Shown piece after piece: positions 24,597 to 48,156 of a stretch of 64,000 bases of DNA. The stretch spans positions 40,861 through 104,860 of the IMG/VR virus record IMGVR_UViG_3300024507_000282. One strand, written 5' to 3'. This DNA is from a virus. Taxonomy: Duplodnaviria; Heunggongvirae; Uroviricota; Caudoviricetes. The notes under the pieces were generated by a model. The model did no database searches. It had not been told where the DNA came from and was given only the letters and a program-made list of their open reading frames with translations. The translations under genes were made by a program, and so were the position numbers. The first letter of the stretch is position 1. Every line of letters begins with the position of its first letter.

Positions 24597-24598
24597 AA

Positions 24599-26839: not shown

Positions 26840-26848
26840 ACTCGTTAT

Positions 26849-27352: not shown

Positions 27353-27354
27353 AA

Positions 27355-27378
27355 AATCGGGGGCTCCGGCCCCCACTA
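27355..27378. terminator. GC-rich hairpin (terminator-like)
   Basis: GGGGGCtccgGCCCCC after hsp20 stop; T-tract only on the opposite strand. Confidence 0.35.
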
Positions 27379-27407
27379 ATAAATACCATTAAGAATGGAG
27401 GGCCAAT

Positions 27408-28940: not shown

Positions 28941-28963
28941 ATACAGAATAGACGGATTTTACC

Positions 28964-29872
28964 ATGAGAGCAAAAGAATTCATCACAGAAGCAACCAATG
29001 CCGCACAACAAGCCGCTATCGCTATTGCTAAAAAGAAAAAGCAAAATGTAAAAGAATTTGCGCCGGATAATAGTGGCGACGAAGAAGAAACATTACTCAA
29101 GTACGCTCGTATTTGGTACAATGGCGATGACGACATACAACAAAAAGTTGAAAAACTATTAAATCGTATGGGTTGGGAAATTGGCGAAATCGAATCAGAA
29201 GAAGGCGGCGCATTTGTTGTGCAGTCTGGCGATGAGCATGGTAAGAGTTATATTGGTTTTGCCCCAGAAGACTTAACTGAAGCCGCCATGGCGGAAGGTG
29301 TCGATATTGGCCGAGAGTGGATGAGCGACACTGAATTGGATCAGTATGTGCCAGATCGCTTACAACAACAATGGCGTGAATTGTTGGGTTACGATCGCCA
29401 TGGCAATCCAAGTGCATTGTGGGCAAACTTAACAGGCGGATATGAACCGGATGTTAATGATCGTCAACATCGTGCCCTAATGGTTAAAGTGGCTAACAAA
29501 TGGTTTGCGGCTAAGAAGATTCCTAATGTTAAATTCTTCAGTGTTAGAGATGCAGACGATGAATTAGAATGGTTAGTTCAAATTGGCCCAGAAGGTATGT
29601 CAGAAGATTGGCAGAAGGTTAATAAGAAAGACAAAACCGATGGCATGAGCAGTAAAGCCGTTAAAGCATATCGTAGAGAACATCCTGGTAGTAAATTAAA
29701 AACAGCAGTCACTACACCTCCTAGCAAATTAAAGAAAGGATCTAAGGCAAGTAAGCGTAGATCAAGTTTTTGTGCTAGAAGTGATGGCCAAAAGAAAATG
29801 CACAATATTGATTGCACTAAGACACCAGACAAGGCAATCTGCAAAGCACGTAAACGTTGGAACTGTGAATGA
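28964..29872 (+). CDS. hypothetical protein with CTS-like N-terminus MRAKEFITEA; basic Cys-containing C-terminus
   Basis: shared ATGAGAGCAAAAGAATT start; candidate packaged internal protein. Confidence 0.55.
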   Translation: MRAKEFITEATNAAQQAAIAIAKKKKQNVKEFAPDNSGDEEETLLKYARIWYNGDDDIQQKVEKLLNRMGWEIGEIESEEGGAFVVQSGDEHGKSYIGFAPEDLTEAAMAEGVDIGREWMSDTELDQYVPDRLQQQWRELLGYDRHGNPSALWANLTGGYEPDVNDRQHRALMVKVANKWFAAKKIPNVKFFSVRDADDELEWLVQIGPEGMSEDWQKVNKKDKTDGMSSKAVKAYRREHPGSKLKTAVTTPPSKLKKGSKASKRRSSFCARSDGQKKMHNIDCTKTPDKAICKARKRWNCE

Positions 29873-31422: not shown

Positions 31423-31433
31423 GCCAAATCTAG

Positions 31434-31463
31434 TTGACAAATCTTACGAAGTTCATATATAAT
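31434..31463 (+). promoter_or_regulatory. sigma70-like promoter TTGACA-N18-TATAAT driving tRNA-Thr
   Basis: consensus hexamers 10 nt before the tRNA. Confidence 0.55.
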
Positions 31464-31472
31464 AAAAACATT

Positions 31473-31548
31473 GCCCCTTTAGCTCATCTGGTAGAGCAAC
31501 TGATTTGTAATCAGTAGGTGGTCTGTTCGAGTCGGACAAGGGGCACCA
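31473..31548 (+). tRNA. tRNA-Thr (anticodon TGT), CCA encoded
   Basis: manual cloverleaf: acceptor GCCCCTT/AAGGGGC, D GCTC/GAGC, AC stem ACTGA/TCAGT loop TTTGTAA, T-arm GTCTG-TTCGAGT-CGGAC. Confidence 0.8.
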
Positions 31549-31570
31549 TTTTTAACTTCAGGAGAAATTT

Positions 31571-32260
31571 ATGTTTGGTGCAAGTTACACAGGTACTGGA
31601 ATTTACCGTTCAGCCGCACAGATCAATGAAGCAATGGGTCGTGTCTATGGACACATGAGCCTAGCAGTTCTTGTGTCTATGATTGTTAGTTACTTTGTAG
31701 GTACTAGCCCAGAATTGTTACAATTCTTCTTTACAGGTGTAATGAAGTGGATTGTAATTTTTGCACCACTGGTTGCTATCTTTGGTGTTAGCATGGTACT
31801 ATCTAATAACCCTAGTAAACAAGTCGCCCAACTATGCTTACATGGTTTTGCGGCATTAATGGGTTTGAGCTTTGCTACAATTTTTGCTATCTTTACCATG
31901 GGCAGTATTGTTAGTGCGTTTATGGGTGCGGCGATCTTGTTTGGTACAATGAGCTTCTATGGATACTTTACAAAACGTAGTTTGGAAAGTCTTGGACAGT
32001 TTATGTTCATTGGATTGATTGCTATTGTTATTGCCAGTATTGTTAACATCTTTATTGGTAGTAGTGTAATGGCCATGGTTATCAGTGCATTAGCAATTAT
32101 TATCTTTCTAGGATTAACTGCTTACGATACACAGCAAATACGAGAAATGGTTTCAATCGACTCTGATCCTGCAACCGAAGTAACAGGTGCATTAACACTA
32201 TATATGGATTTTATTAATCTGTTCATTAATTTACTACAGTTGTTTGGTGATAGAAAATAA
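31571..32260 (+). CDS. Bax-inhibitor-1/YccA family membrane protein
   Basis: 7-TM profile and C-terminal LTLYMDFINLFINLLQLF block of BI-1/YccA family. Confidence 0.7.
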   Translation: MFGASYTGTGIYRSAAQINEAMGRVYGHMSLAVLVSMIVSYFVGTSPELLQFFFTGVMKWIVIFAPLVAIFGVSMVLSNNPSKQVAQLCLHGFAALMGLSFATIFAIFTMGSIVSAFMGAAILFGTMSFYGYFTKRSLESLGQFMFIGLIAIVIASIVNIFIGSSVMAMVISALAIIIFLGLTAYDTQQIREMVSIDSDPATEVTGALTLYMDFINLFINLLQLFGDRK

Positions 32261-32282
32261 TTAACTAGTATGTTAATTAATA

Positions 32283-32310
32283 AAAGGGCTCTTCGGAGCC
32301 CTTTTTTATT
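32283..32310 (+). terminator. intrinsic terminator
   Basis: GGGCTCttcgGAGCCC + T6. Confidence 0.75.
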
Positions 32311-32374: not shown

Positions 32375-32914
32375 ATGAAAAAACTATTATCACTTATAGC
32401 ATTATTGCCTATGATTGTATCGGCAGCACCTTTAGGTGATTACACCTTTAAGAGTCCTGCCTTTAACGGCGTAGGTTACAGCAGTCATGTATTAACCATT
32501 GAGAATCAAGAGCGCACACGTCAGAAAGAACGTGCAGATAAACTACAGGCTGAAATTGACAAAGCAGCCGCAGATAAGAAAAACACCAACCTTGCTAAGT
32601 TTGTTAGTAACTTAGAATCACGTATCTATGCACAGATTAGTCAGAACGTAGCAACCGCTATGTTTGCCAATAACAACTGTACAGCAAGTAGCAACACAAA
32701 CTGTTCTGGCAACATTGACTTCCAGGGCAACTATATTAGTTGGGGCAGAGTTAGTAGTGCTAACGATGCTAACTGTTCAACAGCCTACGGATACTGCATT
32801 ATGTTAAAGATTGCAGATCCTACAGCCACTAACCCAAGTACAGCATCATGCACAGACACTGGAATGAGTTGTGTGTATGTTCCATTAAGTTCATTCCAAA
32901 TGCCGGGGAACTAA
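32375..32914 (+). CDS. secreted CsgF-like protein (curli accessory)
   Basis: signal peptide; mature N-terminus DYTFKSPAFNGVGYS resembles CsgF TMTFQFRNPNFGGNP; C-terminus Cys-rich. Confidence 0.45.
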   Translation: MKKLLSLIALLPMIVSAAPLGDYTFKSPAFNGVGYSSHVLTIENQERTRQKERADKLQAEIDKAAADKKNTNLAKFVSNLESRIYAQISQNVATAMFANNNCTASSNTNCSGNIDFQGNYISWGRVSSANDANCSTAYGYCIMLKIADPTATNPSTASCTDTGMSCVYVPLSSFQMPGN

Positions 32915-32917
32915 GAC

Positions 32918-34087
32918 ATGAAAAAGACAATACTATCCCTAGCAGTTTTAACTATGCTTTCAGGTTGTGCTGTTATGCAGACAACTGGAGTACTAGACAA
33001 GAGTCCTGAAGTTACAGGGCAAATGACTAATGTTAAGAAAGAATTTGATACAATACCTAGTCCAATCGCTGGAAGACCACTAAGCGTGGCCGTTTATAGT
33101 TTTACTGATAAAACAGGTCAACGTAGACCGCAGGCAAACATTGCCAGTTTATCAACAGCAGTGACACAGGGTGCAGAAACATTCTTAATACAGGCATTAC
33201 AAAATGTAGGACGCGGTCAATGGTTCGACGTTGTAGAACGTGTGGGCATTGATAACCTAACTAAAGAACGTTTAATTATTAGGCAAATGCGCGAAGCATA
33301 TGAAGGTAAAGATGCTAAACCATTGCTACCAATGCAATTCGCTGGAATTATTGTAGAAGGCGGAATAGTAGGCTACGATCAAAGCACTACCAGCGGTGGT
33401 GTAGGTCAACGTATATTTGGCATAGGCAAAAATACACAGTGGAGCACTGATACAGTAACAGTAAGTTTACGAGCAGTTAGCGTAAACACTGGTAAGGTAT
33501 TAGCCACAGTGACAGTACAAAAGACTATCTTAAGTTCAGCAGACAGCGTATCTGCATTAAAATTCTTTGACGCAGGCACTAAGGCATTTGAAGCAGAAGC
33601 AGGTTTAACTATCAATGAACCTGGCACTTACGCTACAAAGGCAACTATTGAAATGGCAGTCGTAGAGTTAATTAAGGAAGGACAACGTAAAGGTGTATGG
33701 GAGTTTAAACCAGAATCCGCACCAGCGGCCAAGGCACCTGTACCAGCACCAGCGGCCCAGCCGGTAATTAGCTCTGAGATTAAAGAAGAAGTTAAAGTAG
33801 AGGAGAAGAAAGATGTCGTGGTTCAATCACAAACCAAATCCGAAACCGAAACCAAGGCCGTACCCAGTACCGCCGCAAAAGAACTAGAGAAGTTACCTAC
33901 AGAAGCAATTCTAAAGGATGCTCAGTTTATATACAAGGAGCCAAACGAAAAGAGTCAAAGGACTTGGCAGTTTAAGCCAAATACACGAGTATTCATAACC
34001 GGGAGCGAAGGTGATTGGGTACAAGTGCAGGACGTAGAGAAGCGTAAAGGGTTTGTTAAAAAAGAAGTAGTTAACAAACAAAAATAA
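32918..34087 (+). CDS. csgG: CsgG-family secretion-channel lipoprotein (curli CsgG / holdfast HfaB family)
   Basis: lipobox LSGC; long colinear similarity to E. coli CsgG (AVYSFTDKTGQ, ERVGIDNLTKERLIIRQ, IIVEGGIVGYDQSTTSGGVGQRIFGIG, VSLRAVSVNTGKVLATV). Confidence 0.8.
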   Translation: MKKTILSLAVLTMLSGCAVMQTTGVLDKSPEVTGQMTNVKKEFDTIPSPIAGRPLSVAVYSFTDKTGQRRPQANIASLSTAVTQGAETFLIQALQNVGRGQWFDVVERVGIDNLTKERLIIRQMREAYEGKDAKPLLPMQFAGIIVEGGIVGYDQSTTSGGVGQRIFGIGKNTQWSTDTVTVSLRAVSVNTGKVLATVTVQKTILSSADSVSALKFFDAGTKAFEAEAGLTINEPGTYATKATIEMAVVELIKEGQRKGVWEFKPESAPAAKAPVPAPAAQPVISSEIKEEVKVEEKKDVVVQSQTKSETETKAVPSTAAKELEKLPTEAILKDAQFIYKEPNEKSQRTWQFKPNTRVFITGSEGDWVQVQDVEKRKGFVKKEVVNKQK

Positions 34088-34170: not shown

Positions 34171-35145
34171 ATGCATAAGAGAATCACAGGCGCTGGTGGG
34201 TTGTCGAGAAAATTACTCACAATTCTGGTGTTGTCTGCAATGACAACATTGGGTTATGCGGCTGACAATAGCATTTACATTGATCAGTCCGGCGATAATA
34301 GTACTATTACTATGACTCAAGACGGAGCAGGAAACAAAGTAAAGGGTATATTATTAAATGGCACAGCAGGTGGAACAACTGATCCTGCTAAACTAACTGG
34401 TGCCGCACAGACTATCAACATTGAGCAAACAGGAGCAACTAACGTATTGGCGTTAGGTGTTAACTCAACACAAGGTGGTACTGTACAAGGTTATGCTAAT
34501 ATTGGTGTGAATTTAAATTACCAAGTAAGTGGTGGTGGAAACACAGGTTACATTAATATTAACAATAATGGTACAGGCACAGCCAGTGGTAACGTTGTTA
34601 GTTTTGTTCAAAGTGGCGGTAGTGCAACTACAACACTTAACATGACTGGTACAAGTAACCAATTAACTGTTGGAACTAGTGGTGGTGCTAACAACACATT
34701 TACAGGTACAATCAACGCTGATGAAACTGTAGCAACTGTTAGTCAAACAGGTGGCGGCGGCAACGCAACTACACTTAACATGACCGGAAACAAAGGTCAA
34801 GTTAGTCTAACAACTGTTGGTGCAACTAACACTACATCTGTAACACAGAGTGCATACGGTGTAACTGGTGCTCAAGCAATTATCAACATCACAGGTTCTG
34901 GTAATACTACAGACGTAACACAAACTGGTGCGTACGATCACTATGCTAGTATTACTGTAACAGGCGGTAGCAATGGCATTACACTTGCACAAACAGGTGG
35001 ATCTGCTACTGGACACAGCACAACGTTATCTGTAACAGGTAGTACTAATACTATTGGTATTACACAACAAGGATCAGTTAGCAATCTAACTAATCTTGCT
35101 ATATCAGGAAGTGGCAACACTTACACTATTTTACAGAAAAACTAA
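34171..35145 (+). CDS. secreted curlin-repeat protein (CsgA/CsgB/HfaA-like)
   Basis: signal peptide; repeated Q-x-G-x-x-N units (DQSGDNSTITMTQDGAGNKV, IEQTGATNV, VSQTGGGGNATT, VTQTGAYDH, ITQQGSVSN). Confidence 0.55.
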   Translation: MHKRITGAGGLSRKLLTILVLSAMTTLGYAADNSIYIDQSGDNSTITMTQDGAGNKVKGILLNGTAGGTTDPAKLTGAAQTINIEQTGATNVLALGVNSTQGGTVQGYANIGVNLNYQVSGGGNTGYININNNGTGTASGNVVSFVQSGGSATTTLNMTGTSNQLTVGTSGGANNTFTGTINADETVATVSQTGGGGNATTLNMTGNKGQVSLTTVGATNTTSVTQSAYGVTGAQAIINITGSGNTTDVTQTGAYDHYASITVTGGSNGITLAQTGGSATGHSTTLSVTGSTNTIGITQQGSVSNLTNLAISGSGNTYTILQKN

Positions 35146-35154
35146 GAGGGTTCC

Positions 35155-36261
35155 ATGAAATTATGGATGGTAGTATTATGCGTTCCGTTGCTGAGTACAT
35201 CGTTGGCCTACGCCGCGATAGGCAAAGTAACGGAACAAATCAATACACCCCCGACTATCCAGAGACAGAATTCGACACTAACGGCGTCGAAAGGGACTGG
35301 AGTGGAAATGAACGATGCGATCAAGACCCAGCAGGGCAAGGTGGGGATAACATTTGAGGACGATACTAAAGTCCAAGTCAATGAAAATTCTAAACTTGTA
35401 ATTGATGATTTCGTTTATGATCCAAAAAGTAAGGCGGGTAAACTAGGTGCTAAGATTGCTCTTGGCACAGTTCGTTATGCGTCTGGACAGATTGCTAAGA
35501 ATTCGCCTCAGAATGTGGCCCTTTCTACTCCTAGTGCTACTGTTGCTGTACGCGGTACTGACTTTACTGCCACTGTAGACGAGCTAGGCGAAAGTACAAT
35601 TATTCTTTTACCTAGTTGTCCTAATGATAGACCAACACGCTCAGTTAGAGATATTGAAACTAACTGTAAGACTGGCAGTATTGAAGTTAGCAATGATGTA
35701 GGTACTGTAATACTAAATCAACCCTTCCAAGTAACTAAAGTTCAAAGTAGAACACAACCTCCTACACCGCCTAAAGTATTAAATCTAAGTGAAATGGCCA
35801 TTGGCAATATGTTAATTGTCAGTCCTCCGCGCGAAGTCAAACAAGCACAACAAGAACAACAGAGAACATTTAATGCTTTAGACTTTGACTTTTTAAAAGA
35901 GAAAGGTTTGGAGAATTATTTAGATATGCAGGCCAATATGATTTATGAAGATAAGTTAGCCAAAAACTTTTTGTCTAATGATTTCCTTGCTAACTTATTC
36001 GACATTGTGGGAAACATACTGGATCAAAAGTTTTTAGATCCTGTAGATCCTGTGCTACCAGACTATAAAAAGTCCAGTGGCATTATAGCCTACAAAGATG
36101 ATATGAGTGTTGAACTCTGTCGCGACAACGGTGCTGACATACAATGTGTTAAAACACCACTCACACAAAACTCAACAATATTACAAACACAGGGCAATTT
36201 AGAATTTAAGAACAGAATAAATCAGGGAGGTAATACTATTATTACCTTGATACAAAAATGA
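35155..36261 (+). CDS. secreted FecR-domain-like protein
   Basis: signal peptide; VAVRGTDFTATV block typical of FecR/DUF4880 beta-domain. Confidence 0.4.
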   Translation: MKLWMVVLCVPLLSTSLAYAAIGKVTEQINTPPTIQRQNSTLTASKGTGVEMNDAIKTQQGKVGITFEDDTKVQVNENSKLVIDDFVYDPKSKAGKLGAKIALGTVRYASGQIAKNSPQNVALSTPSATVAVRGTDFTATVDELGESTIILLPSCPNDRPTRSVRDIETNCKTGSIEVSNDVGTVILNQPFQVTKVQSRTQPPTPPKVLNLSEMAIGNMLIVSPPREVKQAQQEQQRTFNALDFDFLKEKGLENYLDMQANMIYEDKLAKNFLSNDFLANLFDIVGNILDQKFLDPVDPVLPDYKKSSGIIAYKDDMSVELCRDNGADIQCVKTPLTQNSTILQTQGNLEFKNRINQGGNTIITLIQK

Positions 36262-38651
36262 TAAAACGTTTATTACAGTTCCTTGTGTTTTTAACTGTGT
36301 GCATTAGCGCACATAGTCAGGCTGTGACTTATAATGCTATTGCTACTGCTTATGTTACTACTACAATTAGTCAACAAGTAGTGTTTGATAGTAATATGCA
36401 ACAAGGCGGTACATTTACAATGAGTGTACTAGCACACAACGGCGGCGGCCGTGCAGGACAAAGTGATACGGCTAACGTAAAGATACAGTTCTATAACAGC
36501 AGTGGTGGATTAATCACTAGCGTAAACTCAACTAACTCTGCTAACTTACCAAACCCAAATGCTGTGTGTGGTAATCCTTGTATTGATACTGCGGTACCTT
36601 GGACTACAGTAACTATCAGTGCAACGCTTACTGCGGCACAAGCAAGCCAAGTAGCCTATGCCACAGTCAGTATGTACGGTATTGATGGAAGTTACTGGGC
36701 AGGTGATTATGGTCCTTGGTATCGTGCTCCTACATTCCAACTTAATGGCGGCGGCAACTTATTGTATAACCCGGAGTTTGGGCCTTATAATAATATAACA
36801 GCACAAGGTTGGGTATCAAATCCAGGGTTCGGTGCTTGTCAAGGTGCATGGGGCGGATCAAATGCCTGTATCGTTAACAGCGATGGAGTGCCTGGTTCGA
36901 GTACAGTTGGCTTAGTTGCTAACGCTAACGGTGGCGGCCCTAGTGCTACTGGTGGTACTACTAGTGGTACTGCTGGTGGATATAATAACACAATGTCAGT
37001 GACCAATGCTGGCACGGGCGCAACTGCCGGTGCGGCTCCTGCTCCGACTCCTACAGTAACAGGAACTAGTGTAACTTATACAACTAGAACTGTGGTTAAT
37101 GGTAATACAACTACTGTTTATCGCACACCTGTAACTACAACAACTTACAGCGACGGAACTAGCACAAGTACAAATGGTACTGAAGCAGTATATCAAACTA
37201 AGGTTGCGTCTAACGTAGTAACTACAAAAATTGTAAACGGTGTTCTGACAACAACTACAACACCAATTAATACAGTTACTACAACCGGCGTTAATGGCAG
37301 CACCATAGAAGCAAACGGCACAGCAACAACTACAACACAAAACATACAGCAGGGATTAAACTATAAAGTCTACAAATTCGATCCTTACACTTATAACTGC
37401 GGTTGGTTAGGTTGTATTAAAAACTGGTTAGGGCCATATCGTGTACCTGATATGCCACCTGGTGGACAGCCTGTTAGTATTGGTACAACTAGTAACGGAG
37501 TTTATGTTCCGACTAACGGCAGTTTTCCAAATATGGACACTGGTACCTTAGTTAGATTCAACGGAACGATTACTGCTCCGACGACACAAAATTATCCTGC
37601 AGGTACTGTATATAGATTATACTTCTATAGCAACAGCGATGACGGATTTGTTATGAGTGTAAACGGACAAACAGTTATCAACGATAGATCTACATTCCAA
37701 CTTCAGAGTATAGGTGGCTATACAGCGTCTGGCTGGATAGACATAGTAGCAGGACAGACTTATAATTTTGAAGCATGGTACTGGAACGACACCGGCGGCT
37801 ATGGACTACGTTTTCAATGGGACTACGGTGCAGGCCGTATGAACGTACCTAACTCTGCATTTACTACAGGGTGGATTACTGAAACAAATACAATTGACAC
37901 TAGTGGATTTGTTTATTCTAACAGCGCAGTAGTTGACGTGTCGGGTACAACAGTTTTATTAGGACCAGTAGTTGAAGGTGGAACAATTACACAAACAAAT
38001 GCGCCTGGTGATCAAGTTATAGGTAGCGGTGGCTCATACGTTCCTCCAGCAGATATAGATGTTAAACAAACTAGAATTAATACTTGGAACAACGGTACAC
38101 AAAACTACAATAACGAATTGTACATCACACAAACATACGGTACTAACAATAATGTAACTATTACACAAAGTGGTACTAAGAACAAAATCGAATTTACCTT
38201 AGAAGGAAACAACAATATTGTTAATAATACTCAAACTGGCAGTAACTACTTAAAGCAAGAAGTGCCTGGGTGGGGCAATAACATAACTACTAATCAGTCA
38301 AATGCTAGTGGTTCAAATTATGCTGAAACTAAAATACAAGGAAATGGTAATACTGTAAATCATACACAAACCGGTAATCACATATTGTTCAGTAAAGTTA
38401 CAGGCGATATTAATACTGTAAACACTACACAGTCTGGCGGTGCTGGCCATTTCGCTGATATTACACTAACAGGAAATAACAACTCAGCACTAGTGACACA
38501 AACAGGAAATACTGCTAACAGAGCAGTTATTGATGTAACTAACGCAGGTGGCCCAGCCAGTGTTGACCTGCAACAAACAGGCGGCAAATCATTTAGCATC
38601 ATTCAAAGTTGTACAAATCCAGCGGGTTGTAGCACAGTTGTTCGCCAATAA
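36258..38651 (+). CDS. large secreted Thr-rich protein with PA14-like domain and C-terminal curlin-like repeats
   Basis: signal peptide; PA14-like block YFYSNSDDGFVMSVNGQTVIND...AWYWNDTGGYGLRFQW; C-terminal TQTGN/TQSGG repeats. Confidence 0.55.
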   Translation: MIKRLLQFLVFLTVCISAHSQAVTYNAIATAYVTTTISQQVVFDSNMQQGGTFTMSVLAHNGGGRAGQSDTANVKIQFYNSSGGLITSVNSTNSANLPNPNAVCGNPCIDTAVPWTTVTISATLTAAQASQVAYATVSMYGIDGSYWAGDYGPWYRAPTFQLNGGGNLLYNPEFGPYNNITAQGWVSNPGFGACQGAWGGSNACIVNSDGVPGSSTVGLVANANGGGPSATGGTTSGTAGGYNNTMSVTNAGTGATAGAAPAPTPTVTGTSVTYTTRTVVNGNTTTVYRTPVTTTTYSDGTSTSTNGTEAVYQTKVASNVVTTKIVNGVLTTTTTPINTVTTTGVNGSTIEANGTATTTTQNIQQGLNYKVYKFDPYTYNCGWLGCIKNWLGPYRVPDMPPGGQPVSIGTTSNGVYVPTNGSFPNMDTGTLVRFNGTITAPTTQNYPAGTVYRLYFYSNSDDGFVMSVNGQTVINDRSTFQLQSIGGYTASGWIDIVAGQTYNFEAWYWNDTGGYGLRFQWDYGAGRMNVPNSAFTTGWITETNTIDTSGFVYSNSAVVDVSGTTVLLGPVVEGGTITQTNAPGDQVIGSGGSYVPPADIDVKQTRINTWNNGTQNYNNELYITQTYGTNNNVTITQSGTKNKIEFTLEGNNNIVNNTQTGSNYLKQEVPGWGNNITTNQSNASGSNYAETKIQGNGNTVNHTQTGNHILFSKVTGDINTVNTTQSGGAGHFADITLTGNNNSALVTQTGNTANRAVIDVTNAGGPASVDLQQTGGKSFSIIQSCTNPAGCSTVVRQ

Positions 38652-38809
38652 AATCTAACTAAATATTGGATGCTGAAAAACATCTTAATATTAGCAATTA
38701 TTACAACCTTAGCAGGCTGCGCCGGAATAGCATTTTGCGACAAAGACGGACGACCCAAGGGTTGCCACTCATGGGATCCTGCTACTCGAAACGGCGCGGC
38801 ACCAAGATC

Positions 38810-39346
38810 ATGAGAGCAAAAGAATTTATAAAAGAAGCAGAAGCAAGTGACGCCGATTTAAAAGCAAGATATGGTGACTTCGATCCTGAAGATAAAATAA
38901 TGCTTCCAACTACAAAATTAAGCAGAGAACCTGCAGCCACGCTTTGGACAGCATATGATGTAGTTAGAAATATTCTAGGTAGAGATAGAGTAACTGACGA
39001 TGATGACGAATTAGGTCCTGGAATGTATTATGTCTACCAGAGTAGCGGAGATCCAATGTTTAGGGATACAGGCGACGGCGTTGGCAGTATCAACTTACCA
39101 AATCTAGACAGCACCGCGGCACGAGACGTTGCTGTTGCGGCCCACGAAGCATATCACGCTTATGTACACGCTAAAAGTAAAGGCGGCTTTGCACACGCTA
39201 ATGAAAAGATTATTAACAACTTAGCAGAAAAATGGTTGCGTAAACATTTATCAGGACAAGCCTTACATACAGCATTAGAACAAATTATAGGCAGTAGAAT
39301 TAGTTACGGCCGCAACCACTTACCAAAGCCAGGATTTAAAAAATGA
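38810..39346 (+). CDS. hypothetical protein with CTS-like N-terminus MRAKEFIKEAE
   Basis: fourth ATGAGAGCAAAAGAATT start; upstream in-frame extension to 38666 judged non-coding. Confidence 0.5.
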   Translation: MRAKEFIKEAEASDADLKARYGDFDPEDKIMLPTTKLSREPAATLWTAYDVVRNILGRDRVTDDDDELGPGMYYVYQSSGDPMFRDTGDGVGSINLPNLDSTAARDVAVAAHEAYHAYVHAKSKGGFAHANEKIINNLAEKWLRKHLSGQALHTALEQIIGSRISYGRNHLPKPGFKK

Positions 39347-39675
39347 AAATACAATTCAAAAAAATACTAGTAAGTCCATGGACTGCTTTACTAACTCTAG
39401 CACTAGTTGTTGGTGTCAGAGTTGCAGATCCTACATTTGTTGAAAGCGTAAGACTACGTTATTTTGACACATTAATTACAAGTAAAGAAGTTACAGTTAA
39501 CAACATAGTTACTGTAAATATCGACGAAGCCACGTTAGACAAATATGGTCAGTGGCCCTTACCAAGAGCAGAATATGCTAAACTTGTGAAGGAACTATAC
39601 CAAAGAAATGCAGGACTTGTTGTACTTAATGTTCTTTGCCAGAGACAGATCGTACTGGTGGAGATGGTGCGCTAG
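39343..39675 (+). CDS. CHASE2 sensor domain, N-terminal fragment of adenylate cyclase gene (frame 1)
   Basis: signal/TM then CHASE2-like blocks; domain continues in a different frame from about 39636. Confidence 0.5.
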   Translation: MKIQFKKILVSPWTALLTLALVVGVRVADPTFVESVRLRYFDTLITSKEVTVNNIVTVNIDEATLDKYGQWPLPRAEYAKLVKELYQRNAGLVVLNVLCQRQIVLVEMVR

Positions 39676-41393
39676 GACAAACTCTAAAAGAGTTCCCTGT
39701 AGTACTAGGAAGTGCGCCAGCACAGAAAACAAAGAATACACCACGTGTTCCAGGATCGGCTGTACTAGGTCCAGAACATCTAGATCAAATTATTCAATAC
39801 CCGGGACTAATCGCCAACGTTCCTCAACTAGAACAAAATGCCGCAGGTGTTGGCATTACAGGAACACTTCCAGAAGTAGATGGTGTTAATCGCCGCATGC
39901 CGTTAATTGTTACTGTAGACGGCAAATTATATCCAGCATTGAGTTTAGAGACACTTAGAGTCGCCGCAGGAGACTCTACCTTCCAAGTAAAACTTTTTGA
40001 AGGCGGCGTTGAGAAAATGCGTATTCCAAAGTTTGGTCCTATTGCTACAGATAGTTTAGGAAGAATTTGGATCGATTGGAGCCAAGAAGCTCATAGCGTT
40101 AGTGCTGTTAAACTTCCAAAAGATTTAGGTGGCGCCGTCGTTATTGTAGGTCCTACTGCCGCTGGTATTAGTAATCCGTTACCGACAAGCAAAGGTGCTG
40201 TATTTCCTCACGAAGTGCAGGCCGCAGTAATTGGTACAATGGTTAACGGCATTGTTATTCAACGTCCCGACTATGCCGACGGGGTTGAAATTTTAGCATT
40301 AGTATCACTTGGCATATTATTAATTTTCTTATCGAGGTGGACTTATGTTGGCATTGGTGCTACTGTGGTTATTGTTGGTGCCATCGTTCCTGGTACTATC
40401 TACGCTTTCAATAATTGGCTCGTCTTGGGAGACGCGACTGCGATCGCGTTTGGCCTTATTATCGTTGCTCTTCATTGTTATGGCGTTAAGTTTATAAGCG
40501 AGTTTTTACAGAAACAGGCAATTAAGAAACAGTTCGCTGGATACTGTAGTAAGGAAGTAGTAGAAATGCTACAAAAAGATCCAGACCTAATCAAGCGTGG
40601 TGTGCGTAAAGACGTATCCGTTATGTTCAGTGACTTGCGTGGCTTTACACCCATTGGAGAACACTACGGTGATGATGTTGCTGGATTAGGCAAGTATATG
40701 AACGGTTACATGGATGCTATTAGTCAGCCTATCATGGACAACAAGGGTATGGTCATAAAGTATGTAGGTGACGCAAGTATGCACATACACGGTGCTCCGA
40801 TTGAAGATCCTAATCATGCCCGTACTATTGTTGCTGTTGGTTTACAGATGTTAGATGCTGTTGATGAGTATACTAAACTAATGGAAGCACAAGGCTTACC
40901 ACCAGCCGCAATGGGTTGGGGTTGTAACTCAGGTATTGGCTTTATTGGTGAGATGGGATCAACTGACAGACATAGTTACGACATCTTAGGTGACATGGTT
41001 TCAACCGCCGCTCGTTTAGAAGCACGTTGTAAGGCCTATGGCGTGTTATGTATCATCGGTGCTGAAACTTACAACCGTACTAAAGATGACTTCTTCTATC
41101 TAATGCTAGATAACTTACAACCTAAAGGCAAAACTGTAGCAGACTTAATCTATACAGCATTAAGAACCAAAGGTGAAGATTACAGTAAAGATAAAGTACA
41201 GCACGAGTTGATGCATGCCTTGTATAAACAAAAGAAGTTCGACGAAGCAGCCGCTATGTGTAAAAAACTAAAAGGCAACTTTGGTGGACAAATGGACAAG
41301 TACTACAAAATCTGGATTGAACGTTGCGAGTTTATGAAAGAACAGAACCTTCCAGATAATTGGAATGGTGAATTCATAGCACATGAAAAATAA
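39636..41393 (+). CDS. CHASE2-TM-class III adenylate/guanylate cyclase, C-terminal part (frame 0)
   Basis: CHASE2 continuation, TM helices, cyclase blocks VSVMFSDLRGFT, KYVGDASMH, GDMVSTAARLEA. Confidence 0.65.
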   Translation: MPETDRTGGDGALGQTLKEFPVVLGSAPAQKTKNTPRVPGSAVLGPEHLDQIIQYPGLIANVPQLEQNAAGVGITGTLPEVDGVNRRMPLIVTVDGKLYPALSLETLRVAAGDSTFQVKLFEGGVEKMRIPKFGPIATDSLGRIWIDWSQEAHSVSAVKLPKDLGGAVVIVGPTAAGISNPLPTSKGAVFPHEVQAAVIGTMVNGIVIQRPDYADGVEILALVSLGILLIFLSRWTYVGIGATVVIVGAIVPGTIYAFNNWLVLGDATAIAFGLIIVALHCYGVKFISEFLQKQAIKKQFAGYCSKEVVEMLQKDPDLIKRGVRKDVSVMFSDLRGFTPIGEHYGDDVAGLGKYMNGYMDAISQPIMDNKGMVIKYVGDASMHIHGAPIEDPNHARTIVAVGLQMLDAVDEYTKLMEAQGLPPAAMGWGCNSGIGFIGEMGSTDRHSYDILGDMVSTAARLEARCKAYGVLCIIGAETYNRTKDDFFYLMLDNLQPKGKTVADLIYTALRTKGEDYSKDKVQHELMHALYKQKKFDEAAAMCKKLKGNFGGQMDKYYKIWIERCEFMKEQNLPDNWNGEFIAHEK

Positions 41394-41414
41394 TTTGACA
41401 GAGATTATAGCAGA

Positions 41415-42164
41415 GTGTACAATAGACAGATGTGTAGAGTTATATCTATATTGGTATTTTTTGCCTTTTTACATCATGGGCAAACAAGCGCCGCCACTGC
41501 CAAACCTCTGTCTATCACCGCTCAGAGCTGGCTCGTGGCCGATGAATCCGGCAGAATTATTCAAAGCGAAAACATAGATCAACAGCGTAGTATTGCCAGC
41601 ATTACTAAACTAATGACGGCAATGGTTGTGTTAGATGCTAATCAAAACTTAGATGAACAAATCGGTAAGTATACCCGAGCCGAAACAATACAACTAGCAT
41701 TAGTACACAGCGACAACAAAGCGGCTGATCTACTGTGTCAATACTATCCTAATGGTAAGGATGCCTGTGTTAGAGCAATGAATACTAAAGCACATCTGTT
41801 AGGTATGCACGACACAAAGTATGTCGAACCTACAGGGCTTAGTGTGTTTAATGTAAGCACAGCCACTGATTTAATTAAACTAGTTCTAGCGGCAAAGAAC
41901 TACGCAGAGATTATTGAAGCATCACGCACACCGCAGGTTAAAATTAAGATAAAGAAAAAGTGGTTTATCTTTAATAATACTAATCCAATTATTGGCAAGC
42001 GTCATGAATTTATTGTCAGCAAAACTGGCTACATAAGAGCCAGTGGAGGTTGCATAGTAATGATGTTGGATACAGAAATAGGACGCAGAATTGTAGTAGT
42101 ACTAGGAAGTAAGAATACTAAGACACGTATTCCTGAAGCAGAGTTTATTGCTGTTAATTCCTAA
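41415..42164 (+). CDS. secreted D-alanyl-D-alanine carboxypeptidase/endopeptidase (peptidase S11, PBP5/7-like)
   Basis: signal peptide; SxxK active site SIASITKLMTAMVVLD; ATG 41433 is an alternative start. Confidence 0.65.
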   Translation: MYNRQMCRVISILVFFAFLHHGQTSAATAKPLSITAQSWLVADESGRIIQSENIDQQRSIASITKLMTAMVVLDANQNLDEQIGKYTRAETIQLALVHSDNKAADLLCQYYPNGKDACVRAMNTKAHLLGMHDTKYVEPTGLSVFNVSTATDLIKLVLAAKNYAEIIEASRTPQVKIKIKKKWFIFNNTNPIIGKRHEFIVSKTGYIRASGGCIVMMLDTEIGRRIVVVLGSKNTKTRIPEAEFIAVNS

Positions 42165-42858
42165 CCTGTGCAAGGTTAAAGAAGCGTAGTACCTTAATAT
42201 AGATCCAACCGATATCTAATTCAAACCAACGTTGACGGAAACTAGCATTGGCCCCATCGGCATGATGATTGTTATGTAGTTCCTCACCACCGATCCAAAT
42301 AGCCCAAGGCCATAAGTTACGGCTAGTGTCTTTGGTGTCAGTATTACGATATCCCCACCAATGTGCCAGTCCATTAATAACACCAGCGGCCCAGAATGGA
42401 ATCCATATCATTTGAATGCCCCACACAAGAATACCCCAAGGACCAAAGAACAATAAGTCTATGACTAACATTAAGAGAATTCCAAGGCGGCTGTGTAGGG
42501 TGTAAACATTACGCTCTAGCCAATCATCAGGAGTACCTACTCCTAACTTTTCAACCATTGCGGTATCTTTACTGGCAGAGTGATATAAACTCCAGCCTTT
42601 GAATAGCACAGTTTTAATACCGTAAACTTGTGGACTGTGCGGATCTAAATCTGTATCGCTGGCTTGATGATGTTTGCGATGTATTGCTACCCATTGCTTG
42701 GTAACCATACCTGTTGTAAGCCAAAGCCAAAAACGCATGAAGTGATTTACTGCTGGATGGAATGTTACTGCTCTGTGTGTTTGTCCTCTATGAAGATAAA
42801 GGGTAACACAGGCTATGGTGATTTGAACCATCACCAAGGTGGCTATAATTGTTGACAT
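42154..42858 (-). CDS. membrane acyl-lipid (delta-9 type) fatty-acid desaturase
   Basis: three His boxes HRGQTH, HRKHH, HNNHH in a multi-TM protein. Confidence 0.7.
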   Translation of the reverse strand: MSTIIATLVMVQITIACVTLYLHRGQTHRAVTFHPAVNHFMRFWLWLTTGMVTKQWVAIHRKHHQASDTDLDPHSPQVYGIKTVLFKGWSLYHSASKDTAMVEKLGVGTPDDWLERNVYTLHSRLGILLMLVIDLLFFGPWGILVWGIQMIWIPFWAAGVINGLAHWWGYRNTDTKDTSRNLWPWAIWIGGEELHNNHHADGANASFRQRWFELDIGWIYIKVLRFFNLAQVRN

Positions 42859-42860
42859 TA

Positions 42861-43295
42861 TTAACTCTCGCCAGCGGCCGCAGTCTTTTTATCGTCCGGG
42901 TCAACTTTCTTTGCGCCAATCTTGTCTGCTTCTTCCATTGCTTCGTGGAACTTCTTGTTAGCCTGTGCTTCTACAAGTGCAGTTTCCATAACACGATCCG
43001 ATTCAATCATCTTACCACGTAGGTGTAAGACTGTATTAACTTTTTGGTTAAGACGAATCAAGTCATTGTCTAGCATACGGATACGGTCGATAAGAGCAAT
43101 CAACACAGTATTAGCATCGCTGATAACTGGCTTAACTTCTTTTGTGGCCCATTCCCAAACGTATTTGATAATGAAACCCATACCAACCGCCATAACGATT
43201 GGAAACCCATACTTATTGACTAACTCTACGACATCCATTATATAATCATCCCTATTATTAAACCAACAACTAATCCAGTAATGCCAGCCTTCCAC
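42861..43295 (-). CDS. membrane-anchored coiled-coil protein
   Basis: N-terminal TM, charged helical remainder; directly upstream of desaturase on the same strand. Confidence 0.45.
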   Translation of the reverse strand: MEGWHYWISCWFNNRDDYIMDVVELVNKYGFPIVMAVGMGFIIKYVWEWATKEVKPVISDANTVLIALIDRIRMLDNDLIRLNQKVNTVLHLRGKMIESDRVMETALVEAQANKKFHEAMEEADKIGAKKVDPDDKKTAAAGES

Positions 43296-43379
43296 ATATC
43301 GCTGTCATACCAAATTGCTCTTGGCTGATCCATCCAATCTTTGATGTGTTGGGGTTGTGCATCATACCACAACTGCCAT

Positions 43380-43577
43380 TTATTCTTCTTGAACATTTAC
43401 TGGGTATCCTTTTACAAATTGCTCTACTGGGTGCATTTTAACCAGCATTGCCTTACCATTAACGTTGGTAATTCTAAAGCAATCGCCGTGCTTCCAACCT
43501 AACTTATCAATATCAAGTTCTTCATCGAATATGATACCGCTAGGATTTAAATCCCAACTGTAATCAACATACAGCAT
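43380..43577 (-). CDS. small hypothetical protein
   Basis: 65 aa ORF in minus-strand block. Confidence 0.35.
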   Translation of the reverse strand: MLYVDYSWDLNPSGIIFDEELDIDKLGWKHGDCFRITNVNGKAMLVKMHPVEQFVKGYPVNVQEE

Positions 43578-43758
43578 TTTCGACTCTTTCCTTAATCAAT
43601 ACATTGACTCTATTAGCACAGTTTCTAATATCGTCACTAAGGTTACCTCGGCCAACTTCTTGTTCAATTAGTCTGGCTATGTCATGCAACGTTATAATTG
43701 CATCTTGTAATTTTGTATTAGTCTCGTCTAGCATCGTTCTTACCATCTGCTCTAGCAA
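43564..43758 (-). CDS. small hypothetical protein
   Basis: 64 aa ORF overlapping neighbours. Confidence 0.35.
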   Translation of the reverse strand: MLEQMVRTMLDETNTKLQDAIITLHDIARLIEQEVGRGNLSDDIRNCANRVNVLIKERVENAVC

Positions 43759-43999
43759 TACGATCTACGTCAGGGCGTAAACCTAATGCGTTGGACACAA
43801 TAGTATCAATACGTACAACATCGTGGTTCATTGTTTTTACACGATTGTCTAACGCAGTAATAATACCGGCCATACCTTTGATACTTCCCAAAACACCTTG
43901 TAGTAGTAATTTGATTGTTAGGTAAACAAAGTATCCACCTGCCAATGCCGCCGCTACCGGCATACCCAAATCACCAATTATTTTGAATATATCACCCAT
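43718..43999 (-). CDS. small membrane protein
   Basis: Gly-zipper-like TM GDLGMPVAAALAGGYFVYLTI. Confidence 0.45.
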   Translation of the reverse strand: MGDIFKIIGDLGMPVAAALAGGYFVYLTIKLLLQGVLGSIKGMAGIITALDNRVKTMNHDVVRIDTIVSNALGLRPDVDRIARADGKNDARRD

Positions 44000-44051
44000 T
44001 TTACGCTCCGCTCTTTATACGTGTATTTATGTTAACTGAGTAGATAAGTAT

Positions 44052-44079
44052 TTGACAGGTTAAATAAATGTGTTATAAT
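44052..44079 (+). promoter_or_regulatory. sigma70-like promoter TTGACA-N16-TATAAT
   Basis: consensus hexamers 27 nt before ATG 44106. Confidence 0.55.
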
Positions 44080-44105
44080 AGTAGCACTTAATAAAGTAAG
44101 GAATC

Positions 44106-44393
44106 ATGTCACAAGCACACGTTCAGAAGTTCGAAGCATCTATGTTTGAGTATTGCTCGGACCATGCCGAAAGGGCATACAAGTTATTTGAAGATGGAGA
44201 AGTAGATGTTGGATTGGAAAGATTAGGCCATTTAGCAGATATACTCCAAATGTTAAAAAGTTCTAAAAGTTCAAACGGAACTATTAACATTAATACATTT
44301 GCACAAGAAGTAAAAGCATTAGATGAAATAGATAAAGATGCCGTATACACACACTTCCAAGAGAACGGCTTTGGACAATATATACCGGAGTGA
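44106..44393 (+). CDS. hypothetical protein
   Basis: 95 aa ORF downstream of promoter. Confidence 0.5.
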   Translation: MSQAHVQKFEASMFEYCSDHAERAYKLFEDGEVDVGLERLGHLADILQMLKSSKSSNGTININTFAQEVKALDEIDKDAVYTHFQENGFGQYIPE

Positions 44394-44395
44394 AA

Positions 44396-44953
44396 ATGAA
44401 AAAAATTGATGAGTTCAATGCGGAAGATAGAATTGATCTTAGATTACTGGAAAATTCTACTTTTTATTTGAATGGAGAGATAGATGAAGATACAGTAGGC
44501 GAAGCCATCAAATGGATTCTCTATGAAAATTTACAAGGCGAAGGTAGAACTTTGACCTTGTATATTAACAGCACGGGCGGAGATTTGTATCAGGCTCTAG
44601 CGTTAATTGATGTAATGCGTAGCAGTCCACATATTGTAAGAACTATTGGAATTGGTGCTGTCATGAGTGCGGCATTTTTAATTTTTGCCTGCGGTGATAA
44701 AAAGCATCGTTATGCGGCTAGTAATACTAGTTTTATGTGTCACCAATTTACATCCGGAATGGATGCTAAGTATCACGACCTAAAAGCAGAAATGAAAGAA
44801 ACCGAATTGTTAAATGAAAAGATGATAACAATTCTAACCGAAACAACAGGCTTGGTTAAAAGTAGAGTTAAAGCAAAACTACTACCAGCCAGCGATGTTT
44901 ACCTAACTGCACAAGAAGTGGTTGACTTTGGGGTAGCGGATCATATAGTATAG
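44396..44953 (+). CDS. clpP: ClpP-family serine peptidase (S14)
   Basis: ClpP-like blocks INSTGGDLYQALALIDVM, GAVMSAAF (Ser), FMCHQ (His); GGAG SD. Confidence 0.65.
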   Translation: MKKIDEFNAEDRIDLRLLENSTFYLNGEIDEDTVGEAIKWILYENLQGEGRTLTLYINSTGGDLYQALALIDVMRSSPHIVRTIGIGAVMSAAFLIFACGDKKHRYAASNTSFMCHQFTSGMDAKYHDLKAEMKETELLNEKMITILTETTGLVKSRVKAKLLPASDVYLTAQEVVDFGVADHIV

Positions 44954-45091
44954 TGATGTATAAGGTAAGATACTACATGACTGCTGGAACACTTTCATCG
45001 AGAACGTTTGCTACACTAAGTGAGGCAATAGAGTTTTCGGTGTACAAGGTCGGCTTCATGCAACTCTACGGAATAGATAAGATAGATTAAA

Positions 45092-45928
45092 ATGCGTAAT
45101 CATTATTGGACTTGTTCAAAATTTGCAGATTGGCTTCGTGGTACTACTAAACTAAAGTGTGGGACTAGCGAAGAGTGGGACGAGTGGGAATCTCGTGCTA
45201 AAGCCGCGTATCCTATCCGTTGGTGGTTAGCAGAAGAAGGATTGGATCATTTACAAACAGTTGTATTTTTTATTCCGGATAAACTACATGCTCTCAAATA
45301 TTACATTAACAACCGTTGGGTTACTAAAACTCATGCCCTTACCGCTCATCCTCGTGATATCAAGCCCGGTGATTGGCACGATGTTGGTAATCGTTTTTTA
45401 CCTTGTCTCTTTAATGAACTTCAAGATTTTGTCGAGGTTGAACTAGCCTGGTGGCACATAGCATGGAGTGACAAGAGTGAAAGAGAAAAATACAAAGCAC
45501 CGTTTTGGGCTACTGGTTGGTTCAGATGGCGCACTTGGCGTTGTCCTCAAGCCGGACTTGACAACCTTGAATGGCAACGTAATCTACGTTGGAAAGAAGA
45601 CGAAGTTGGACCAGACAGTAAGAACCTTGGCGAACTTACTCCGCAGGCAGTCAAAGCGCAGGAAATCTTAGACTTGTACACATGGTGGACACAGGTATAT
45701 CGTAATCGTCCAGAGCCGATGGAAGCAAGTGGCTGGACTGCTTACTGTGAAGCCGCACGTTTAGCCAACGGTGGCAAATTAAGTTTCAGTAATGACAAGA
45801 CTCCTGAACTTAGAAAGATGAGCGATAAAGCACACAAGTTACTTCGTAAAATCGAAGCAGACTATGAAAAAGAAGATGAGGCTATGATGATTCGCCTAAT
45901 CAAAGTGAGGCACGGATTATGGACATAA
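45092..45928 (+). CDS. Trp-rich hypothetical protein
   Basis: 278 aa ORF. Confidence 0.5.
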   Translation: MRNHYWTCSKFADWLRGTTKLKCGTSEEWDEWESRAKAAYPIRWWLAEEGLDHLQTVVFFIPDKLHALKYYINNRWVTKTHALTAHPRDIKPGDWHDVGNRFLPCLFNELQDFVEVELAWWHIAWSDKSEREKYKAPFWATGWFRWRTWRCPQAGLDNLEWQRNLRWKEDEVGPDSKNLGELTPQAVKAQEILDLYTWWTQVYRNRPEPMEASGWTAYCEAARLANGGKLSFSNDKTPELRKMSDKAHKLLRKIEADYEKEDEAMMIRLIKVRHGLWT

Positions 45929-46086
45929 GTTATAAGTGTCCTGTCTGTGAAAGTGAGAAACAATATAGCAACAAGTACGATGCGTATTTTTGCGAGTTGT
46001 GTAATAAGTGGCTAGAAGAACCGTGCAAGGATCCAGAGTGTCAATTCTGTACTACACGGCCAGAAAAGCCCAGCCAAGTTGGCTAA
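45919..46086 (+). CDS. small Cys-rich zinc-ribbon-like protein (55 aa)
   Basis: overlaps upstream stop; CPVC..CELC..CKDPECQFC pattern. Confidence 0.35.
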   Translation: MDISYKCPVCESEKQYSNKYDAYFCELCNKWLEEPCKDPECQFCTTRPEKPSQVG

Positions 46087-46118
46087 AAGTAATAAACATA
46101 ATAACAAGGAGAAACATT

Positions 46119-46319
46119 ATGGCAACAAACAGATTTCAAGATTTTTCAAAACTAATCGAAGCCGCAGAAGGTGACTTTGAAAAGTTCTATGACAAGGGTG
46201 TTAATGCCGCAGGTACTCGTGTTCGCAAGCACTTACAAGAGTTAGCCAAACTATGTAAAGAAGTTCGTAACGATGTAACCGCAGTAAAGAACGAACGTAA
46301 AGAATCCGCAGGTAAGTAA
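46119..46319 (+). CDS. small basic protein (possible DNA-binding)
   Basis: AAGGAGAAACATT-ATG; the longer ORF from 46008 overlaps the previous gene and lacks an SD. Confidence 0.5.
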   Translation: MATNRFQDFSKLIEAAEGDFEKFYDKGVNAAGTRVRKHLQELAKLCKEVRNDVTAVKNERKESAGK

Positions 46320-46702
46320 TGGATAAAAAAGAAATCAAACGCGATGTAGCAACATTCGCTCATATGCTCAAGGAGTTAATGAACGATCCTACACCAGATG
46401 TACTAGTAACATTGGATCGCGACATTCAGCATTTCATCTATGGCAGAACCGCAGTATTAGTAAAACATAATGAAGGCAAGCCAATTGGTACAGTAGCAGA
46501 TATTGCCGCAGTAGTTGGGGCGGCCTTTGCTGATGTACTAAAAGAATTTACTAGAGGTCGTGTTAGTGATGCAGAATTAGATACAATAGTCCAAACTGCA
46601 AGAGCCAACTTACTCAGTGGATTTGAAGCAAGAGCTCCTAAGCCTGAAGTAAATACAGAAGCACCGGCAGAAGAGCCAGCAAAAGAGGAAGTAGCACAAT
46701 GA
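46319..46702 (+). CDS. hypothetical protein
   Basis: ATGG overlap coupling; 127 aa. Confidence 0.5.
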   Translation: MDKKEIKRDVATFAHMLKELMNDPTPDVLVTLDRDIQHFIYGRTAVLVKHNEGKPIGTVADIAAVVGAAFADVLKEFTRGRVSDAELDTIVQTARANLLSGFEARAPKPEVNTEAPAEEPAKEEVAQ

Positions 46703-47177: not shown

Positions 47178-47756
47178 ATGCAGTACAATGAATTTTTAGA
47201 TTGGGTAGATATTGACAAGTTTTCAGATGCTTGTAATAACATCTGTCATCAGACAGTATTAAATGAATCCACAAATCGAATGATGAAAGAAAAATTCATT
47301 ATTGCGGCAATGCAATTATCTAATCATAAAAAGAACATCGAGTGGACTGACGTTCGCGATTACGATATAAAATTTACCGATTGGACCAATGGCGACGTAG
47401 AAGTTAAAACTGGCAACGAACCTTTGTTCTACGCAAAGTCAGGAACTCCTAAAAAGACAATCAGTCTTAAATTAAAAAATGTTTACGAAAGTAAGAATCA
47501 AAGAACTACACTAGACAAAGTTTTTAATCATTTAATGATAGTCCAAATTAAAGGAACATTCGCTGTTGCCTTTGTAGATTACGCAACAGTTAAGGCTAAT
47601 CTAAAACAATTAACAGACGGCTTCTTAGTCAAACTAACACACGACCAAATAAATATTGTGTACAAAAAAGATATGAGAAATGAACCGACATCTTGGACAA
47701 TTGACTTAGATCCAAAACCTTGGATATTTGGCACATTAGCAAAGGCAGGCGTTTAA
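47178..47756 (+). CDS. hypothetical protein
   Basis: 192 aa ORF. Confidence 0.5.
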   Translation: MQYNEFLDWVDIDKFSDACNNICHQTVLNESTNRMMKEKFIIAAMQLSNHKKNIEWTDVRDYDIKFTDWTNGDVEVKTGNEPLFYAKSGTPKKTISLKLKNVYESKNQRTTLDKVFNHLMIVQIKGTFAVAFVDYATVKANLKQLTDGFLVKLTHDQINIVYKKDMRNEPTSWTIDLDPKPWIFGTLAKAGV

Positions 47757-47761
47757 AGAAT

Positions 47762-48118
47762 TGTTGTAATCCCTTCAAAGCGAAGGACTTCTGGACGCGG
47801 GTTCGACTCCCGCCAGGTCCACCATAAGGACATAAATTTACTTTGGTATTCATTGTAAATTTACTTTGGTATTGTGTTTTTATGATGGGCCTGCCATGGT
47901 TTCGACAGGGGTAGATAGTAGAGACGGCAACACGGTAGGCGATGACCGTAAATCAAGCAAAACTAGTAAATGCAAACGCATCTACATTTGAGTACTTCAC
48001 TGTTGAAGGCTTCACAGCCGACAATGGTCTAGTAGCAGCCTAAGAAACTGCAACTCCGGGGTAGGACTTACCTTGTAACCCAAACAACCAAAGGGCCTTC
48101 GGGCCCTTTTTTATTTTA
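47762..48118 (+). ncRNA. ssrA: two-piece (circularly permuted) tmRNA gene: acceptor piece first, coding piece second
   Basis: 47791-47824 T-arm GCGGG-TTCGACT-CCCGC + CAGGTCC-A-CCA; 47887 GGGCCTG pairs with it giving G3:U70; UUUCGACAGGGG tmRNA-like 5' element; tag ORF 47972-48043 ANASTFEYFTVEGFTADNGLVAA; terminator at end. Confidence 0.6.
48092..48117 (+). terminator. intrinsic terminator
   Basis: GGGCCttcgGGCCC + T6. Confidence 0.75.
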
Positions 48119-48127
48119 CCAAACACA

Positions 48128-48156
48128 TTGACAGATGCCCTGTCCGAGCCTATAAT
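48128..48156 (+). promoter_or_regulatory. perfect-consensus sigma70 promoter TTGACA-N17-TATAAT
   Basis: exact hexamers 37 nt before ATG 48193. Confidence 0.6.

Follow-up and report, generated by a model that had tools for sequence, protein, structure and literature searches.

A single-base deletion in the CHASE2-cyclase gene of a curli-FecR-cyclase module in a large uncultured phage

A phage region for curli or type VIII secretion (T8SS), whose putative regulators are FecR and an adenylate cyclase, has been described by Wittmers et al. (2022, mSystems; PMC9599517), and the adenylate cyclase is not found in every phage curli region (PMC9599517). Curli genes are also discussed in the paper on phage Melnitz (PMC9004378) and by Zaragoza-Solas et al. 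(PMC7029224). Here we analyse the corresponding cyclase gene in a 64,000-nucleotide stretch of a Caudoviricetes record (IMG/VR IMGVR_UViG_3300024507_000282, positions 40,861 to 104,860), hereafter the window, in which the gene lies on the + strand at 39343-41393. Methylophilales phage Melnitz (QZI94833.1) and Pelagibacter phage HTVC008M (AGE60353.1) have the same domain architecture and module order, and their cyclases share 45.7% identity (over 96% of the protein) and 35.5% identity, respectively, with the one studied here. The present phage differs from both in being larger, with contigs of up to 330 kb against 141-147 kb, in carrying an additional 178-residue open reading frame (ORF) with an HExxH motif before the cyclase, which neither the Melnitz nor the HTVC008M module contains, and in having a broken cyclase gene in this contig. 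A megablast search of the region against deposited phage genomes gave no match. The break is almost certainly a private, non-programmed deletion of one base, whether it arose as an allele or as an error.

The frame switch and the missing base

Within the CHASE2/class III cyclase gene, frame 1 gives way to frame 0 inside GTTCTTTGCC. An earlier note, made from the letters of the window without database searches, had described this gene as running in two frames through ORFs at 39343-39675 and 39636-41393, with CHASE2 continuing across both, and its coordinates and two-frame description are correct. The upstream ORF (110 residues, frame 1) matches positions 2-79 of the Pfam CHASE2 profile with 51.8 bits, and the downstream ORF (585 residues, frame 0) matches profile positions 85-256 with 63.1 bits, followed by Guanylate_cyc. 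The two ORFs overlap by 40 nt, and the second lies in the -1 frame with respect to the first; its listed start is a TTG at 39636, with no Shine-Dalgarno (SD)-like sequence upstream. Frame 0 is blocked by a TAA at 39627-29 and opens only at 39630, and frame 1 runs no further than the TAG at 39673-75, which confines the switch to 39630-39675. Homology sets it between ..GLVVLNVL and PETDR..., within about 10 bases of 39636. When the two parts are joined at Leu98 they give a protein of 683 residues with one continuous CHASE2 match (profile positions 2-256, 127.8 bits against a cutoff of 26.3) and a cyclase domain. The Pfam matches and a hydrophobicity scan uphold the identity that had been proposed for the gene, namely a phage-borne class III cyclase with a CHASE2 sensor and transmembrane (TM) helices, and the presence of rIIA and rIIB in the window confirms that the genome is that of a phage.

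The joined 683-residue sequence was used as a query against 5.8 billion proteins. An intact protein of 683 residues (P0001) was listed at 100% identity and coverage, and it is encoded on 30 contigs, the longest of 330,125 bp. The DNA of three contigs bearing P0001 (L001, ENA ERZ27251564; L002; and L003, JGI 3300024298) was then compared with positions 34343-46393 of the window. Over 12,052 bp, L001 and L003 show no mismatches and one gap, and L002 shows 16 mismatches and the identical single gap. This gap falls between 39636 and 39637, inside the decamer at 39631-39640 where the break had already been placed. At this point the window reads CTT-TGCC and the three near-identical contigs read CTTATGCC; in the alignment across the junction, CTT-TGCCA in the window stands opposite CTTATGCCA in the intact contigs. 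The intact contigs thus read CTT ATG CCA (..NVLMPETDR..; Asn-Val-Leu-Met-Pro-Glu), and the window is without the A of the Met99 codon.

Because the missing A has T's on both sides, the placement of the gap is unambiguous, and because it is a lone A flanked by T's, its loss did not arise by shortening of a homopolymer. The TTT of the window is the outcome of the deletion (TT-A-T to TTT) and not a shortened run of T's. A homopolymer sequencing error, which was one of three explanations offered in the earlier note, therefore has the wrong mechanism. By comparison with L001 and L003, the deletion is the sole difference from the intact allele within the gene and the 12 kb around it.

Distribution and origin of the break

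Further loci were retrieved through three other proteins of the window, giving contigs from several ENA and JGI samples. Positions 2452-64000 of the window are 99.99-100% identical to these contigs, with 0-1 mismatches per ~20 kb, and no second indel was found in these 61.5 kb against independent assemblies, the diverged strains L005 and L011 excepted (L005 diverges by 1.6% from the window). Because there is no other indel over this span, the source assembly is taken to be accurate and not to derive from error-prone long-read data. In the public protein collection the 110-residue product comes from one JGI/IMG contig only (104,860 bp), so the break belongs to the deposited assembly; the two genes flanking the cyclase are found on 37 contigs and intact P0001 on 30. 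The comparison with orthologues that had been recommended gave single ORFs in every case, both on the 30 contigs with the identical protein and among 120 close homologues (P0001 and 119 further clusters, 84-100% identity). Full-length members of this set are 679-703 residues long, with one of 661, and none is interrupted. A Met occupies the junction in 119 of the 119 close homologues that are readable there, within the motif NV[LI]M[PAS][ED].

Exact pattern scans of viral and metagenome contig collections for the junction, both with the extra base and lacking it, gave no match; since the same pattern does find L001-L003 and the window, these collections do not contain this phage. Exact look-ups of the possible C-terminal products were also empty, a weak negative given that three of these products begin with TTG or GTG and were perhaps translated with Leu or Val instead of Met. 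One apparent sign of a recurrent break, P0123, a 116-residue N-terminal CHASE2 fragment, was rejected on account of the several broken genes on its contig (L012). This related contig (JGI 3300071516 Ga0620986_28660) has its glycosyltransferase, cyclase and penicillin-binding protein genes all split within 2372-6813. It looks like an error-prone assembly, and P0123 clusters with the 110-residue fragment of the window for that reason only.

We favour, with a probability of about 0.5, the reading that the deletion is real, not a consensus error, and represents a loss-of-function allele that arose very recently, is private to one strain and affects a dispensable accessory gene. Read from its true start, the gene goes out of frame after Leu98 and ends at a TAG after 110 residues, giving a product with the TM helix and ~80 CHASE2 residues; the other 585 codons are left with neither a ribosome-binding site nor an N-terminal membrane anchor. 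The cut lies inside the sensor fold (CHASE2 profile 79/85 of 257) and not between domains, and we infer that the product of the broken gene is non-functional. On this reading the allele would be fixed or dominant in the phage population of one sample and would not be a recoding signal; that it is a genuine natural knockout, now the dominant allele of the phage in one sample, we put just short of an even chance. A real allele is favoured by the non-homopolymer context and by the zero other indels in 61.5 kb, and the absence of the cyclase from some phage curli regions (PMC9599517) is consistent with dispensability. Several observations weigh on the other side. The break is a singleton, on one contig against more than 30, and this is also how an assembly error would look. 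The gene carries no further degenerative changes, so there is no sign of relaxed selection, and as neither the gene nor the surrounding 12 kb holds any other difference from the intact allele, the allele must be extremely recent or not real. Several strains co-occur (L002 with 16 mismatches in 12 kb, L005 at 1.6% divergence), and under such conditions an assembler can introduce consensus glitches. The suggestion of a recently inactivated gene therefore stays viable, in that disruption relative to intact orthologues is seen, but further decay is not. If the deletion is a real allele, it would hint that phages in nature can do without the cyclase of the curli-FecR-adenylate cyclase module, or that this enzyme carries a cost under some conditions, and the deletion would provide a natural null ready for comparison with the intact strain.

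A serious competing possibility, although one that we hold somewhat below even, is that the phage in the sample has an intact gene and that the A was lost during sequencing or assembly of the 104,860-bp JGI contig. Such a loss would agree with the recovery of the 110-residue product from one contig against 30 for the intact protein, with the occurrence of mixed strains in these samples, and with a gap that is the lone indel in a sequence otherwise identical to other assemblies or differing by one mismatch per ~20 kb. Against this, the context is not a homopolymer, and 61.5 kb without a second indel speak against a noisy platform, in contrast to L012 with its several broken genes. De Bruijn assemblers, moreover, would be expected to emit only k-mers that are repeated in the reads.

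Readings in which the window sequence still yields a working cyclase fare much worse. Programmed -1 ribosomal frameshifting or transcriptional slippage at CTT-T, which the earlier note had also raised, would restore the full-length cyclase, and the arrangement does resemble phage programmed -1 sites (e.g. those of the tail assembly chaperone G/GT type) in its two overlapping ORFs with the downstream one in -1, here with a 40-nt overlap. The 100 nt downstream fold with a minimum free energy of -26.6 kcal/mol (z = -2.2, 8 of 200 shuffles as good), a weak signal, and the intact genes contain this sequence too. Unlike those phage sites, however, this one has no slippery heptamer, no conservation in relatives and a position inside a globular domain: the zero-frame codons are AAT GTT CTT TGC, no X XXY YYZ heptamer occurs in 39630-39675, and a tRNA moving from CUU to UCU could not re-pair. 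A TTT is far too short for polymerase slippage, which needs a long run of roughly 8 or more A or T, and was itself made by the deletion; every relative has one frame with an ATG at the site. With the frameshift not conserved, no heptamer, only three T's and a fold found equally in intact genes, we set programmed recoding aside as scarcely credible.

It is also very improbable that the gene is functionally split, with both ORFs expressed and reassembling, or with an internally initiated C-terminal fragment acting as a deregulated cyclase. The C-terminal ORF keeps all TM helices, together with the complete catalytic domain, and in-frame ATGs are available at 39897 and 40017. The split nevertheless lies inside the CHASE2 fold, between profile positions 79 and 85 of 257, there is no SD-like sequence before the TTG at 39636 or the ATG at 39897, and the C-terminal fragment is without the N-terminal anchor needed to put CHASE2 in the periplasm. 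A split architecture occurs in 0 of the 120 close homologues, and the lone short N-terminal fragment examined (P0123) comes from the multiply broken assembly L012. These comparisons guard against taking a private indel for recoding, and against annotating the two pieces of one gene as separate proteins.

At 53825-53898 the window encodes a tRNA whose anticodon is CTA (amber suppressor; ARAGORN label 'tRNA-Pyl'). TAG recoding, which this tRNA had prompted us to consider, was rejected: none of the long ORFs is broken by an in-frame TAG, so that TAG is not a sense codon inside genes, and TAG ends 3 of the 83 called genes in the window (TAA 57, TGA 23). It ends none of 32 large ORFs on the + strand, though the trinucleotide is as frequent as TGA overall.

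The intact cyclase and its relatives

The gene encodes an ordinary membrane adenylate cyclase of 683 residues, for which the use of ATP and production of cAMP are predicted. A Kyte-Doolittle scan gave hydrophobic segments at residues ~7-28 and three more within ~314-386, an arrangement that would place CHASE2 in the periplasm, bracketed by the N-terminal TM helix and the C-terminal TM helices, with the cyclase domain in the cytoplasm. The Guanylate_cyc (PF00211) match scores 52.4 bits against a cutoff of 21.9, and the full-length protein corresponds to phrog_35576 (E = 2.5e-185). Catalytic residues were read from an alignment of 141 family representatives. The metal-binding residues D431 and D477 are invariant (141/141), the position of K473 is Lys in 138 of the 141, and R558 is conserved. 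In class III cyclases a pair formed by Lys and Asp, Thr or Ser sets the preference for ATP over GTP, and K473 with D547 predicts ATP as the substrate, hence cAMP as the product. The transition-state Asn is replaced by Ser554 in this protein, as it is in Melnitz and in 7/141 representatives (VSTAAR vs VNLAAR), and in the same seven the specificity position is Asp and not Ser/Thr; HTVC008M retains Ser and Asn at the two sites. Because Ser554 is conserved within the clade, the enzyme carrying it is probably functional.

Among proteins of known structure, the catalytic domain aligns over residues 388-605 with Synechocystis Cya2 (2w01, E = 2.6e-20), its bacteriophytochrome fusion (6fht, E = 2.3e-17) and Pseudomonas aeruginosa CyaB (3r5g, E = 3.9e-16). 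All three share the metal-binding Asp residues, the Lys and the Arg with the phage protein, but they have other N-terminal sensor modules and an Asn (..VNL..R) where the phage protein has Ser. The same architecture is found in bacterial CHASE2 class III cyclases (PF05226 and PF00211), which are mostly alphaproteobacterial; genes from Bradyrhizobium, Methylobacterium, Tardiphaga and similar bacteria show 27-33% identity to the phage cyclase over nearly its full length, and the family comprises 3,802 cluster representatives at E <= 1e-30. Where the clade of this phage has Asp (specificity position) and Ser (catalytic position), most of the bacterial proteins carry Ser/Thr and Asn, respectively.

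The neighbourhoods of bacterial CHASE2 cyclases were surveyed at 80 loci (L015-L094), over 6 kb around each gene. A FecR-like ORF was present in 21 of the 80, often directly upstream on the same strand, and CsgG or CsgF was found at none of them. With FecR nearby at part of these loci but CsgG and CsgF at none, the survey suggests a signalling pair of FecR and CHASE2 cyclase that is independent of curli and that phages would have coupled to curli genes. FecR as a universal partner of the bacterial cyclase was rejected, since only a subset has it and others have HlyD-like or unrelated genes upstream. At several alphaproteobacterial loci a HlyD-like gene lies upstream of the cyclase instead of FecR.

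That an external cue might be coupled to cAMP in the infected cell, as the earlier note had proposed, is reasonable, but the idea is not new, as the cyclase of this module was already included among the putative regulators of the phage region (PMC9599517). The gene adds a member to a family of phage genes that had been described before. Through it a large uncultured phage, with contigs of up to ~330 kb, joins the group with a curli/T8SS-FecR-adenylate cyclase module known from pelagiphages and Melnitz.

The module and its genomic surroundings

The module is co-linear in the window, in the order csgF, csgG, curlin-repeat gene, FecR gene, second curlin-repeat gene, 178-residue HExxH ORF and, last, the cyclase (Table 1). 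The phage CsgG homologue carries an SH3 domain that canonical CsgG is without. The 178-residue ORF, which is found on 37 contigs, had no Pfam or PHROG match, and its stop overlaps the ATG of the cyclase. A promoter-like site adjoins the cyclase stop, which suggests that the transcription unit of the cyclase ends with this gene.

Table 1. Features of the cyclase gene and of the curli-FecR-cyclase module (window coordinates; residue numbers refer to the intact 683-residue protein)
Feature	Position	Strand	Details
Terminator-like hairpin	32282-32305		before the csgF-like gene
csgF-like gene	32375-32914	+	first gene of the module; Pfam
csgG-like gene	32918-34087	+	Pfam; C-terminal bacterial SH3 domain (SH3_4 / SH3_3)
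Curlin-repeat protein	34171-35145	+	weak Pfam match, 20.4 bits vs 20.7 cutoff; position as in Melnitz and HTVC008M
FecR-domain protein	35155-36261	+	phrog_37870
Second curlin-repeat protein	36258-38651	+	797 residues; signal-peptide-like N-terminus; Curlin_rpt 21.5 bits
178-residue ORF	38810-39346	+	HEAYH (HExxH, zinc-peptidase-like) motif; translationally coupled to cyclase start (ATGA)
Intact cyclase, layout			hydrophobic helix ~7-28; CHASE2 18-325; three helices ~314-386; class III cyclase 388-605; tail of ~78 residues
Cyclase codons 1-98, frame 1	39343-39636	+	N-terminal TM helix (~residues 7-28, 39361-39426) and first third of CHASE2
One-base deletion site	39634-39639	+	window CTT/TGC vs CTT ATG C in L001-L003; A of Met99 gone between 39636 and 39637
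Premature TAG	39673-39675	+	ends frame 1 after 12 out-of-frame codons, giving a 110-residue product
Rest of gene, frame 0	39637-41393	+	TG remnant of codon 99, codons 100-683, TAA at 41391-93
Contents of frame-0 part		+	remainder of CHASE2 (to residue 325, ~40316); three hydrophobic helices (~314-386, 40281-40499); cyclase domain; tail of ~78 residues (41157-41390)
Class III catalytic domain	40608-41084	+	Pfam residues 423-581; PDB alignments span 388-605
Key residues			D431 (40632), K473 (40758), D477 (40770), D547 (40980), S554 for the usual Asn (41001), R558 (41013)
Promoter-like site	41395-41423	+	TTGACA-17-TACAAT, 11/12; consensus match only

After the cyclase, at 41415-42164, lies a D-Ala-D-Ala carboxypeptidase gene (Peptidase_S11), whose product is 244 residues long in some contigs and 180 residues in others, including the 330-kb contig; the difference (L002 7281-7823 vs L001 7089-7823) indicates start-site or sequence variation between strains. 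The 12452-32260 region is dense in host-like accessory genes, among them the large and small subunits of a class I ribonucleotide reductase with glutaredoxin, genes for Fe-S assembly (NifU, HesB-like), ribosomal protein S21, MazG, HSP70, HSP20, ClpS, heme oxygenase and bilin reductase, and a Bax-inhibitor-1 homologue. The window encodes 26 tRNA genes, most of which form an array at 59022-63937, and a permuted two-piece tmRNA gene at 47732-48134 with the tag ANASTFEYFTVEGFTADNGLVAA; a similar permuted tmRNA has been reported for Melnitz (PMC9004378).

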